DNA of 27,745 nucleotides, from NCBI GenBank assembly GCA_045588515.1, contig JAZNEH010000220.1, positions 1 through 27,745 of the forward strand, read 5' to 3'. Within the stretch, counting starts at the first letter, position 1; each line of letters starts with the position of its first letter. A model generated the notes under the pieces. That model searched no databases, was not told the origin of the DNA, and saw only the letters and a program-made list of their open reading frames with translations. Source of the stretch: Eubacteriales bacterium. GTDB lineage: Bacteria; Bacillota; Clostridia; Oscillospirales; QAKW01. Both the position numbers and the translations under genes were made by a program. This document shows, one piece after another, positions 2,945 to 17,997 of the stretch.

Positions 2945-2957
2945 AATACCATATTGA

Positions 2958-3226
2958 AACCAATGAGTAAGAAGAGTAGGATCTTTGGAAACTCCAAGAG
3001 AGCCGCTGATGCTGGAATTGCGGCAGTGAAAGAGGATCTGAATGGCCTTACGAGGGCAACTGAACGCAAAGCGCTTGCTTTGTTAGTAGTCGTTGACGGG
3101 GCGTGCCCGTTATCGCCACGACCTGCGTGATTGCGCAGAATGAGCGGATGATTTTTCATCAATATGGGTGGCACCGCAGAAAAGGTTTTCTGTCCCATAC
3201 TTCCTTCGGGAAGTATGGGATTTTTT
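2958..3226 (+). ncRNA. T-box riboswitch, tryptophan-specific, transcriptional attenuator
   Basis: Stem I with AGUA (2975-2978) / GAA (3040-3042), AGAGA and GCUG motifs; specifier UGG at 3043-3045 bounded by helices GTAAG/CTTAC and GGATC/GATCT; antiterminator bulge UGGCACC (3169-3175), whose variable C would pair with the G73 discriminator of tRNA-Trp; lies upstream of trpB. Confidence 0.93.
3193..3226 (+). terminator. T-box attenuator terminator
   Basis: TCCCATACTTCC-TTCG-GGAAGTATGGGA followed by TTTTTT; the 5' arm overlaps the antiterminator 3' strand. Confidence 0.92.
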
Positions 3227-3245
3227 AATGGAAAGGAGCATAAAA

Positions 3246-3308
3246 ATGTTTTTAATGACCAAACGATGGCGAACCGGAAATACATTTGCCAATTTTAAAA
3301 ACATTTGA
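3246..3308 (+). CDS. Putative 20-aa leader peptide MFLMTKRWRTGNTFANFKNI
   Basis: AAAGGAG (3232-3238) 7 nt before ATG 3246; one TGG codon (3267-3269); TGA at 3306-3308, 2 nt before the trpB RBS. Confidence 0.5.
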   Translation: MFLMTKRWRTGNTFANFKNI

Positions 3309-3327
3309 ATAAAAGGAGAATATAACT

Positions 3328-4545
3328 ATGATCTTTAACAATATTGATTTCGATACCTATCTCAAAAACTATCCCGACGAAAAGGGCTATTTCGGTAAAT
3401 ACGGCGGATCCTTTGTTTCCCCCGAATTGCAAAAGGCTATGGACGAGATTACCGAAGCCTATTTCACCATCTGCAAATCCAGTAAATTCATCAGCGAACT
3501 GCGCCGCATCCGCAAGGAATTTCAGGGCCGGCCCACGCCGATCTCCCATCTGGAGCGCCTTTCTGCCAAGTTGGGCAATGTGCAACTTTACGTTAAGCGG
3601 GAGGACCTGAACCATACCGGCGCCCATAAACTGAACCATTGTATGGGCGAGGCGCTTTTAGCCAAGTATATGGGCAAGAAAAAATTGATTGCAGAAACCG
3701 GTGCCGGGCAACACGGTGTGGCCTTAGCCACTGCCGCCGCTTATTTCGGCTTGGAATGTGATATTTATATGGGCTCTGTGGATATTAAGAAGCAGGCGCC
3801 CAACGTGGCAAGAATGAAGATCCTGGGTGCCAACGTGGTAGAGGTCACCCACGGTTTGGCTACCCTGAAGGAAGCCGTTGATGCCGCTTTTGAGGCCTAT
3901 GCCCGGGAATATAAGGATGCCATCTATTGCATCGGCTCCGTGGTAGGCCCCCATCCCTTCCCCATGATGGTGCGGGATTTCCAAAGCGTCGTGGGCATCG
4001 AGGCCCGGGAGCAGTTCAAGGAAATGACCGGTGAACTGCCCGATGCCATCGTAGCTTGCGTGGGCGGCGGCTCCAACTCCGCCGGATTCTTTGCCGGATT
4101 TTTGAACGATCCTGTTACTATTTACGGTATTGAGCCTTTGGGCCGAGGCACCAAACTGGGCGATCACGCCGCCAGCCTGCAATACGGCACCGAAGGTGTA
4201 ATGCACGGCTTCAACAGCATTATGCTGAAAGATGAAAACGGCGATCCCGCCCCGGTTTATTCTGTTGCCAGCGGCTTGGACTATCCCTCCAGCGGGCCGG
4301 AGCACGCTTTCCTGCATACTCTGGGCAGAGTCAAATATGATGTGGTAAACGATGAAGACACCATCGACGCCTTCTTCGAACTTTCCCGGATGGAAGGCAT
4401 CATCCCCGCCATCGAAAGCGCCCACGCAGTTGCCTACGGTATCAAACTGGCGAAAGAGATGGGTAAGGGGTCTGTATTAATCAACCTTTCCGGCCGCGGC
4501 GATAAAGATATGGACTATGTGATTGAAAACTATGGCATTCGTTAA
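3328..4545 (+). CDS. trpB: Tryptophan synthase beta subunit, stand-alone (no trpA in window)
   Basis: PLP lysine motif [11 protein letters not shown], catalytic Glu motif [15 protein letters not shown], GLDYPxxGPEH, NLSGRGDKD. Confidence 0.95.
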
Positions 4546-4572
4546 CGATTGCAAAATAAAATATGATGTGTT

Positions 4573-4609
4573 AGAATAAGAGTGGATGTTCTCCACTCTT
4601 ATTCTTTTT
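4573..4609 (+). terminator. trpB terminator overlapping the MATE promoter
   Basis: 14-bp stem AGAATAAGAGTGGA / TCCACTCTTATTCT plus T-run; overlapping promoter TTGCAA (4549-4554), 17 bp, TAGAAT (4572-4577). Confidence 0.75.
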
Positions 4610-16026: not shown

Positions 16027-16092
16027 ATCGATAATGGTTGACTTTTGAAAGAGGTTATGTTACCATTCATCTATAATAAAACAAAATACCAG

Positions 16093-16258
16093 CCGATGGA
16101 GGCGCGGTTCGCCAAGAGTATGGCCGTTTTGGGGTTAGAAAACGGTTTGAAAGGGGCAACCGCCGAAGTGATTTTTCCGTCCCCCCCCGTTTTGCGAAAA
16201 ATTGCTGGGTCGGCGCAAAATATGCGCCGGACTGTCACGATTTGTGGAGTGCCATCTT
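16093..16258 (+). ncRNA. Lysine riboswitch (L-box)
   Basis: P1 GATGG/CCATC; GAGGCGC, AAGAGTA, GAAAGGG, GCCGAAG, CTGGG, ACTGTC and GGAGTG conserved segments in order; promoter TTGACT-17-TACCAT at 16038-16066. Confidence 0.88.
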
Positions 16259-16272
16259 ATGTATGATCTTTC

Positions 16273-16335: not shown

Positions 16336-17997
16336 ATGAAAAACGCAAAATTGCGCAAGATCGGCCTGATTCTGATCTCTGTTCTGCTGATGGCGGGATT
16401 ATTCTCCATCGCCTGCTTTGCAGAGGATGCGGCCGCCGAAGAGGTTTATACCTCGTTCTTCAACGAAACTGCTTGGTCCCTGTTGCCGCCGGTGATCGCC
16501 ATTGTTTTGGCTTTGATTACCAAGGAAGTTTATTCTTCCCTCTTTATCGGAATTCTTTCCGGCGGTATTCTTTATGCGGTGGGGGATGGAAAATTCAGTT
16601 TTGAAACGATGTTCAACGCCGTTGTAAACGATGGGTTGGTTGCCAATCTGGCCGATGCCTGGAATGTGGGCACCCTGATCTTCCTGGTGGTGCTGGGCGC
16701 TCTGGTTGTGATGATGAATCGGGCCGGCGGCAGCCGTGCCTACGGCGAATGGGCCGCCACCAAGATCAAAGGCCGCCGGGGTGCGCAATTTGCCACCTTT
16801 GGTTTGGGTGCTTTGATCTTTGTGGATGACTATTTCAACTGCCTGACCGTGGGCAGCGTAATGCGCCCCATCACCGATAAGCATCATATTTCCCGGGCAA
16901 AGTTGGCTTATCTAATCGATGCCACCGCCGCCCCCATCTGCATCATCGCCCCCATTTCTTCCTGGGCCGCCGCTGTCAGCGGCACTGTGGATGGGGTGAA
17001 CGGCATCTCGCTGTTCATCCAAACCATCCCCTATAATCTCTATGCCCTCTTGACCATCGCTATGGTCATTATTATCTCGCTGGGCGATTTCGACTTTAGC
17101 TCTATGCGCCGCCACGAAGAAAATGCCCGAAAAGGCGATCTCTTCTCCGATGCCGGCAATCCCTATGCAAATGCCGATCAGATTCCCGCCAGCAGCAAGG
17201 GCAAGGTGATCGATCTGGTGTTGCCCGTAGTGGTACTGATCGTGTTGAGTGTGGCCGGTATGGTTTACACCGGCGGTTTCTTCAGCGGCACCTCCTTCAT
17301 CGATGCCTTTGCCGGTTGCGATGCCGCCTACGGTCTGGCCGTTGGTTCCATTGCCGCTCTGATCGTGGATATGATCTACTTTATGGCCCGCCGGGTACTC
17401 TCCTTCAAGGAATGTACTGAAGCGTTGCCCGAAGGCTTTAAGCAGATGGTTCCCGCTATCCTGATCCTGACTTTCGCTTGGGGCTTGAAATCTATGACCG
17501 GCCTCTTGGGCGCCGGTACGTTCGTATCCGGCGTTGTGAAGGGCGCAACGGCCCTGCAGATCCTGTTGCCTGTGATCCTGTTCCTAGTGGCTGTTTTGCT
17601 GGCCTTTGCCACCGGCACCTCTTGGGGCACTTTCGGCATCCTGATCCCCATCGTTACCGATGTGTTTAAGGATTCTTTAGCCAATGTGGGCGAAACCGGA
17701 ACGATCCCTGCTATGGTGATCATCTGCATCTCTGCCTGCCTGGCCGGCGCCGTTTGCGGCGACCATTGCTCCCCCATTTCCGACACCACCATTATGGCCT
17801 CCACCGGCGCACAAAGCGACCACGTGGCTCACGTTTCTACCCAATTACCCTATGCACTCACCGTTGCCGGGGTTAGTTTGGTAGGTTACCTGCTGGCCGG
17901 CTTCGTTCAGAACGTATTCTTGGTTCTGGGCGTTTCCTTAGCGCTGATGATCGCAACCCTCTTTGTGATCCGTGCGATCGTTCGGAAAAAAGCCTAA
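16336..17997 (+). CDS. NhaC-family transporter, probable lysine permease (LysW-like)
   Basis: SLLPPVIAIVLA, FVDDYFN, KLAYLIDATAAP, TGTSWGTFG, GAVCGDHCSPISDTT, HVSTQLPY; preceded by a lysine riboswitch. Confidence 0.88.
   Translation: MKNAKLRKIGLILISVLLMAGLFSIACFAEDAAAEEVYTSFFNETAWSLLPPVIAIVLALITKEVYSSLFIGILSGGILYAVGDGKFSFETMFNAVVNDGLVANLADAWNVGTLIFLVVLGALVVMMNRAGGSRAYGEWAATKIKGRRGAQFATFGLGALIFVDDYFNCLTVGSVMRPITDKHHISRAKLAYLIDATAAPICIIAPISSWAAAVSGTVDGVNGISLFIQTIPYNLYALLTIAMVIIISLGDFDFSSMRRHEENARKGDLFSDAGNPYANADQIPASSKGKVIDLVLPVVVLIVLSVAGMVYTGGFFSGTSFIDAFAGCDAAYGLAVGSIAALIVDMIYFMARRVLSFKECTEALPEGFKQMVPAILILTFAWGLKSMTGLLGAGTFVSGVVKGATALQILLPVILFLVAVLLAFATGTSWGTFGILIPIVTDVFKDSLANVGETGTIPAMVIICISACLAGAVCGDHCSPISDTTIMASTGAQSDHVAHVSTQLPYALTVAGVSLVGYLLAGFVQNVFLVLGVSLALMIATLFVIRAIVRKKA

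Follow-up and report, generated by a model that had tools for sequence, protein, structure and literature searches.

A Trp-codon leader peptide family of gut Clostridia, found between Trp T-box terminators and tryptophan-acquisition genes, as a candidate second sensor of tRNA-Trp

Between the terminator of a Trp-specific T-box leader and the trpB gene of a Eubacteriales bacterium (assembly GCA_045588515.1, contig JAZNEH010000220.1) lies an upstream open reading frame (uORF) of 20 codons, only one of them for Trp, which by the comparisons given below is a genuine member of a widespread family of short leader peptides of gut Clostridia, with the core Leu-Leu-Thr-Lys-Arg-Trp. The stretch of DNA analysed, 27,745 nucleotides (nt) of the forward strand, is referred to throughout as the window. 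The uORF most likely gives this leader a second check on the supply of tryptophan, one made by the ribosome. On balance we lean towards viewing it as a translated leader-peptide gene, in which a ribosome pausing at the single UGG would sense Trp-tRNA and favour expression of the downstream gene for Trp acquisition. A role as sensor is proposed because the uORF combines a strong Shine-Dalgarno (SD) sequence, an invariant frame, a Trp codon present in 16 of 16 congeneric uORFs, an association exclusively with a Trp T-box and Trp-related genes, and selection at the level of the peptide.

The anatomy of the leader is compact, with all its features on the forward strand. A sigma-70-type promoter-like site at 2916-2944 (TTGACA, a 17-nt spacer and TATATT, with a TG extension; 11 of 12 matches) is followed at 2954-3200 by a T-box leader that aligns over its full length with Rfam model RF00230, scoring 105 bits against a gathering score of 93. 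Everything that defines the Trp class is found here: the covariance-model match itself, a UGG specifier at 3043-3045 (GAA-UGG-C at the specifier position of the model alignment), a T-box sequence at 3166-3177 with the UGGC bulge expected for tRNA-Trp, and an intrinsic terminator at 3192-3226, formed by a 13-bp stem with a 4-nt loop (stem-loop 3192-3221) and a T-run. Six bases past this terminator stands the SD sequence AAAGGAG (3232-3238), 7 nt ahead of the ATG of the uORF (3246-3308). The conserved peptide core, M-F-L-M-T-K-R-W-R, is encoded at 3246-3272 and includes a CGA codon (3264-3266), the presumptive sensor TGG (3267-3269) and a second CGA (3270-3272); the tail, at 3273-3308, is unconserved and closes with a TGA stop at 3306-3308, 2 nt before what reads as the trpB SD, AAAAGGAG, at 3311-3318. 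The trpB gene (3328-4545, ATG at 3328) encodes a tryptophan synthase beta-type enzyme, dependent on pyridoxal phosphate, of 405 amino acids with a PALP domain (PF00291), and apparently stands alone. An earlier note, made from this DNA alone, had singled out the AAAGGAG and its 7-nt spacing, the 20-codon frame, the CGA-TGG-CGA triplet and the TGA 2 nt from the trpB SD, all of which proved exact. Absent from that description was a hairpin over the uORF, specific to the clade of the window, at 3244-3306, with an outer stem of 12 bp (3244-3255/3295-3306) and an inner stem built on UGGCGAA (3267-3273/3285-3291); it contains both the start codon and the Trp codon of the uORF and ends 8 nt before the GGAG of trpB. 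A second terminator after the uORF was considered and rejected: the local hairpin has no T-run, and no terminator-like site was found between 3246 and the start of trpB. Across the uORF and leader, the T-box was the only Rfam family recovered, with no match to Trp_leader (RF00513) and other families appearing as sub-threshold noise.

A single SD-led frame of 20 codons could arise by chance, and the case for the uORF therefore rests on its conservation. Within the genus, represented by 30 genomes, 26 carry one homologue each of the T-box in the window, and leaders were chosen by this T-box homology alone. An SD-led uORF occupies the equivalent site in 16 of these 26 leaders, and every one begins with a variant of M-F-L-M-T-K-R-W or with the shorter M-G-L-I-R-W, placing TGG at codon 6, 7 or 8 in each case, TGG not having been a requirement of the search. 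The Trp residue is followed by Arg or, in two cases, by an immediate stop; past that point the peptides are unlike and their ends differ. The gene downstream is trpB in some leaders and a lipoprotein binding protein of family PF04392 in others, even among close relatives. When mapped on a tree of T-box sequences, the presence and absence of the uORF require at least four changes on well-supported branches, and since the uORF family is much older than the genus, we read these changes as losses. In the nearest pair that differs, L002 (with the uORF) and L004 (without it), the junction looks like the product of a deletion between two AAAGGAG repeats. Leaders lacking the uORF in general resemble clean deletions between the two AAAGGAG SD repeats, as seen when L004 is set against L002 and against positions 3232-3318 of the window. 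No difference in terminator strength was seen between leaders with and without the uORF, a comparison that supports no conclusion, parsing having been unreliable for six leaders.

Beyond the genus, one genome per species was scanned with a pattern consisting of a generic T-box sequence followed, at suitable spacing, by an ATG, a Leu codon and CGATGG, for which few matches were expected by chance. The pattern occurs in at least 119 further genome stretches, almost all from Clostridia. Among 80 loci retrieved from these, 73 have an ATG in frame with the TGG as well as an SD, and nearly all are labelled Clostridia or Eubacteriales; the seven out-of-frame matches, all in non-Firmicute records (Proteobacteria, Actinobacteria and others), represent the expected noise. 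In-frame carriers belong to the Acutalibacteraceae, Oscillospiraceae and Ruminococcaceae, with some Lachnospiraceae and Christensenellaceae, and include a cultured organism, Caproiciproducens galactitolivorans BS-1 (locus L077). When 401 genomes from 30 families, sampled evenly across the order, were searched with a stricter pattern, 27 genomes from 10 of the families matched it and none matched the reversed-pattern control. In nearly all leaders inspected by eye, UGG stands at the specifier position. A tandem-Trp variant, W-W-R, gave one real match among 400 genomes of the class, and the match to it in the genome containing the window was chance-like. Conservation of the ribosome-binding site (RBS) and the Trp codon, which the earlier note had named beforehand as the alignment test of its proposal, was strongly borne out: an SD-like motif lies upstream of 84 of 85 family uORFs, and no congeneric uORF lacks TGG. 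The note had also professed to know of no description of such a T-box and Trp-uORF design on a clostridial trpB, and our literature searches agreed with it, yielding rtpLP of Bacillus subtilis alone; no published account of an L-L-T-K-R-W leader family was found in these searches, whose coverage excluded the main T-box review.

What has been conserved is best seen from the codons of 84 distinct leaders, tabulated relative to TGG. Positions -4, -3 and -2 were free in the search pattern, and are nevertheless occupied by Leu in 63 leaders (five codons), Thr in 63 (all four codons), and Lys in 66 (both codons) or Arg in eight, respectively. Position -5, partly fixed by the pattern, is Leu in 78 (TTA, TTG, CTT or CTG), and position -1 is Arg in all 84, as CGA, the CGATGG hexamer having been demanded by the wider scan. 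At +1 the residue is Arg in 71 leaders (CGA, CGT, CGC or CGG) and Cys in seven (TGT or TGC), with a TGA stop in the other six; Gln is also found there where that codon was left unconstrained. The conserved stretch thus comprises the first 7-9 codons, M-x-L-L-T-K-R-W and then mostly R, with nothing kept past +1. The earlier note had heard in the window's R-W-R-T-G an echo of the W-W-R-T-S of Escherichia coli TrpL; by this table the W-R is conserved and the T-G tail is not. Amino acids that stay fixed while their codons change synonymously argue that the peptide, or its codon-by-codon decoding, is under selection rather than an RNA motif.

These observations bear directly on the view that the uORF has no sensor function at all, being instead an untranslated RNA element, a chance frame, the stub of a lost gene, the scar of a mobile element or an independent micropeptide. 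Such a view could draw on the position of the start codon inside a stable hairpin in the window's clade, and on the frequent loss of the element. We consider it highly improbable, given the synonymous variation around a kept peptide, the invariant frame, the near-universal SD (84 of 85), the single copy of the uORF sequence in its own genome, the absence of any Rfam family over the uORF, and the lack of the hairpin in most of the family. Members as short as eight residues, with unconserved tails and situated before four unrelated gene families, speak further against a stub and against a micropeptide acting as partner of the downstream product. The 5' stub of a deleted gene, offered as an alternative in the earlier note, accordingly gives way to a stand-alone, conserved short frame. 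A mobile-element scar with inverted-repeat ends was separately ruled out, the sequence being single-copy in its own genome and always located behind a Trp T-box.

The codon preceding UGG deserves separate consideration. It is CGA in 16 of 16 members of the genus, a count free of bias in that these were found via T-box homology, and in about 19 of 21 credible members, counted by eye, from a metagenome scan that permitted any CGN or AGR codon. In the genome containing the window, CGA makes up 8.9% of Arg codons and accounts for 10 of 130 Arg-Trp pairs. The tRNA-Arg anticodons found in that genome, a 1.6-Mb assembly that is 89% complete, are ACG, CCG and CCT; UCG was not found in it, and CGA would therefore be read through inosine-adenosine (I:A) wobble. 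Work by Curran in 1995 reportedly found such wobble at CGA to give poor decoding in E. coli, and in yeast I:A decoding of CGA is strongly inhibitory. On the other side of the sensor codon, UGG is followed without exception by C or U: CGN, UGY, UGA and CAR codons occur there, each of them a single transition from CGN, and AGR does not. This restriction to pyrimidines could stem from relaxed selection together with a bias towards transitions, or from a constraint acting on the nucleotide next to the sensor codon on its 3' side.

The anatomy, the conservation, the selection on the peptide, the bias towards CGA and the Trp-specific setting of genes are observed; from them we infer that the uORF is translated, that ribosomes pause at its UGG, and the direction and route by which this would act on trpB. 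Accumulation of uncharged tRNA-Trp would cause the T-box to permit readthrough by RNA polymerase, whereupon a ribosome could load at the strong uORF SD and meet the single UGG after 5-7 codons. Were charged Trp-tRNA scarce, the ribosome would pause at this UGG with peptidyl-tRNA-Arg on the rare, inosine-wobble-read CGA in its P site, the conserved upstream residues and the CGA presumably rendering a single-codon pause long or stable enough for use; the paused ribosome would then favour expression of the downstream Trp-acquisition gene. Since conservation stops with the Trp codon, leaving the following residue almost unconstrained, the decisive event would be the decoding of UGG with a 6- or 7-residue peptidyl-tRNA-Arg on CGA. 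We infer that nascent chain and wobble-read CGA together stabilise the pause, for example against drop-off of a very short peptidyl-tRNA, and in this way offset the missing tandem Trp codons. In the window and its closest relatives, two further effects may be superimposed: the pause would hold apart the two arms of the hairpin, one at the uORF start and the other just ahead of the trpB SD, and would keep ribosomes off the stop 2 nt before that SD, where termination would cover it. The sensor half of this two-layer idea is, as far as sequence can carry it, well supported. As to the earlier proposal that tRNA-Trp is sensed twice over on a clostridial trpB, such two-layer sensing is still the preferred reading, while an output through a stop placed next to the SD cannot be general.

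Several findings weigh against the UGG-pause interpretation, mostly with respect to its output. The spacing between uORF end and main ATG varies from -4 to 187 nt, with a median of 42, and so defines no conserved route from pause to output; the distance from TGG to the main ATG is tighter, with a median of about 62 nt and a middle half of 57-69. Family-wide, the uORF core shows no excess of complementarity over shuffled sequences, whether towards the main RBS, towards the spacer or towards the T-box leader, and when the footprint of a stalled ribosome was modelled, the predicted accessibility of the main RBS barely changed, from 0.52 to 0.57. The hairpin is confined to seven of 16 members of the genus and leaves the SD outside it. 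The uORF is dispensable, having been lost at least four times within the genus. With one Trp codon where trpL or rtpLP has two or three, the sensor is weak, and a short uORF that precedes a strong SD by some 40 nt might just as well supply ribosomes for re-initiation, with the opposite sign.

Additional searches for RNA structure gave a similar picture. In seven of the 16 genus members, including the window (p=0.007), the hairpin arms are more complementary than shuffles, but the corresponding pairing of uORF start with pre-SD sequence is not seen in the wider family (mean z of 0.1; 4 of 61 at p<0.05). A module alignment made for covariation left the 3' arm out of register, and the arms are too invariant for a covariation test. 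Nor did the T-box leader and the Trp-codon region show any excess of long-range pairing over shuffles. Sequestration of the SD in the manner of ermC was rejected family-wide, on the basis of the nearly unchanged RBS accessibility and the lack of excess core-RBS complementarity.

The geometry of the window invites comparison with the mechanism known from rtpLP, in which, with Trp-tRNA plentiful, the ribosome terminating at the uORF would cover the trpB SD, and a stall at UGG would free it. The 2-nt gap between the stop and the SD fits well: by usual footprint sizes a terminating ribosome would extend to about 3318-3320. There is also experimental precedent in the at operon of B. subtilis, and in a minority of relatives the uORF likewise ends no more than about 20 nt from the main ATG, or runs into it. 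We nonetheless find this an improbable account of the uORF, because its stops are scattered over the whole range of distances given above, in six of the 84 leaders the stop follows Trp directly and is over 50 nt away from the main ATG, and what the frame conserves is the Trp codon and the part preceding it rather than the region of the stop. The leader peptides vary in length, from eight to 34 residues. Conservation of the stop-to-SD distance, the other property that the earlier note had wished to see in an alignment, is thus not kept, and its terminating-ribosome block suits the geometry of the window without extending to the family. The rtpLP-like and hairpin routes may represent a clade-specific combination in the window, leaving mRNA protection, ribosome traffic or re-initiation as the outputs available family-wide.

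Protection of the mRNA has the merit of needing no conserved pairing, stop position or spacing, which agrees with their lack of conservation in the family. A ribosome paused at UGG would here act as a roadblock, shielding the readthrough mRNA from 5'-to-3' decay, such that a shortage of Trp-tRNA would raise transcript half-life rather than open the RBS. RNase J and RNase Y are both encoded in the window's genome, the uORF and its strong SD open the part of the transcript specific to readthrough, and the arrangement would suit any downstream gene, in keeping with four unrelated target families; an erythromycin-stalled ribosome is said, from the work of Bechhofer and co-workers, to stabilise ermC mRNA in B. 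subtilis. Yet the 5' end of the transcript lies about 290 nt upstream and is highly structured, so that an extra barrier might add little unless the leader were first cleaved, and the clade hairpin is left unexplained. We regard decay protection as the essential output with considerable reserve, as an unlikely but serviceable candidate.

That selection acts on an N-terminal core of 7-8 residues, more than a simple hungry-codon sensor would require, raises the further question of whether the peptide arrests in response to a ligand, in the manner of TnaC, ErmDL or SpeFL, the exit tunnel being where free tryptophan, indole or some other small molecule would be sensed in place of Trp-tRNA supply. 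K-R-W-R matches the basic-x-basic pattern, which is intrinsically slow to translate and supports macrolide-dependent arrest in short leaders such as ErmDL, and members ending in W followed by UGA are reminiscent of arrest at a stop codon. The residue after Trp, on the other hand, is free (R, C, Q or stop), and arrest in abundant Trp would need to shut the gene down, from a stall site that lies about 48 nt away from the main SD and does not pair with it. The Rho RNA-binding domain (PF07497) was found in none of the 30 genus genomes, 17 of them at least 90% complete, by a search that matched nine of 14 controls, and the genus appears to be a lineage without Rho, which excludes a TnaC-type output here. 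Taken together, these points make ligand-dependent arrest quite improbable in our judgement. Output of the Rho/TnaC type was itself rejected as a candidate, Rho not having been found in the genus.

A bolder elaboration of the UGG-pause interpretation can be put forward tentatively, as something we think possible and rather doubt. L-L-T-K-R-W might constitute a new, very short nascent-chain arrest motif which, together with an inosine-read CGA, would make a single UGG a sharp sensor of Trp-tRNA, possibly also of free Trp or indole, and would act without RNA rearrangement, for example as a stalled-ribosome roadblock against RNase J. It would then provide a second layer of control over indole and tryptophan salvage in a large part of the gut Clostridia.

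The genes placed under these leaders give the family a coherent physiological setting. Four families are found downstream, namely TrpB (63), TrpB2, the PF04392 binding protein and an ECF S-component (two), and by these assignments all serve Trp acquisition. The genome containing the window yielded no TrpA (PF00290) and no IGPS/TrpC (PF00218) at its 89% completeness, and with this caveat its trpB therefore looks like a stand-alone gene for indole salvage, which suggests that the source organism is a Trp auxotroph capable of such salvage. Forty tRNA genes were found in the same incomplete assembly, none of them for tRNA-Trp. In about ten congeners (loci L005, L006, L008, L010, L013-L015, L017, L034 and L036) the orthologous Trp T-box, with or without a uORF, drives the PF04392 binding-protein gene and not trpB. 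Repeated swaps of the leader between trpB and this transporter operon seem to have taken place, even among very close T-box relatives. In the window itself, a PF04392-type ABC transporter operon lies upstream of the T-box (104-2898), with its own promoter and no T-box.

Downstream of trpB is a MatE gene, and a promoter-like site with a TG extension occurs between the two at 4549-4577; the MatE gene may therefore be outside the T-box-controlled transcript. Past the end of trpB, the search for terminator-like sites gave none. The genome has seven other T-box leaders, none of them followed by a comparable uORF where the downstream sequence suffices to tell, two of them being near contig ends. Elsewhere in the window, a lysine riboswitch (RF00168, 94.5 bits) at 16089-16262 precedes a gene for a transporter of the NhaC/Na_H_antiporter family (16336-17997), an arrangement already known from lysine uptake.

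For the tandem sensing of tRNA-Trp, in which a T-box is joined by a leader peptide, one case is known, the anti-TRAP operon of B. subtilis. The existence of a large family, conserved at the level of the peptide over many families of gut and rumen Clostridia, would make of this design a recurrent solution and not a curiosity. The combination of a single sensor codon with a conserved seven-residue chain and a nearly invariant rare CGA suggests how one codon might become a good sensor, a matter relevant to ribosome stalling and codon-pair effects in bacteria generally, and the regulated genes hint at the means by which gut anaerobes auxotrophic for Trp recover indole and tryptophan, both of them metabolites known to affect the host. 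The present analysis contributes a consensus for the peptide, the preference for CGA, the spread of target genes and the recurrence of losses, and it excludes several mechanisms of output; and with C. galactitolivorans BS-1 there is at least one cultured carrier in which the family can be tested.

Among known systems, the E. coli trpL leader and other classical attenuators (RF00513) share with this family a short, SD-led frame with one or more Trp codons followed by Arg. Leaders of the trpL type sense Trp-tRNA through ribosome pausing. Their terminator and antiterminator follow the leader frame, whereas here none does, the terminator precedes the uORF as part of the T-box, and there is a single Trp codon. 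The ermC, ermD and cat leaders likewise encode very short conserved peptides (7-9 residues) with an early stall and a basic-x-basic motif (R-L-R in ErmDL, R-W-R here), but their stalls need an antibiotic and open an SD-sequestering hairpin, while no such hairpin was found here and the context is one of amino-acid supply. TnaC resembles the family in its conserved nascent peptide, its essential Trp and its link to tryptophan; it differs in sensing free Trp at a stop codon, with an output by blocking Rho, whereas Rho was not found in the present genus and the opposite sign would be needed. The precedent for the design is the at operon of B. subtilis (rtpA-ycbK), with its leader rtpLP (Chen and Yanofsky 2003, 2004, as cited in PMC2311275 and PMC10327191). 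There, rtpA is preceded by a Trp T-box and a Trp-codon leader peptide, complete translation of which prevents translation of rtpA. The likeness is one of arrangement: an SD-led short frame with Trp codons between a Trp T-box terminator and the regulated gene, through which tRNA-Trp charging is, or in our case would be, sensed in both transcription and translation. rtpLP has three consecutive Trp codons and works through a stop adjoining the rtpA SD, where the present family has one Trp, a conserved peptide before it, a rare CGA and a variable stop, and its target is an anti-TRAP protein, where here the targets are trpB, trpB2 and transporters. A stop near enough to occlude the SD, the hallmark of that system, is present in the window (2 nt) and is not conserved in the family. 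The uORF family is one of T-box plus Trp leader peptide, and stands apart from the rtpLP mechanism.

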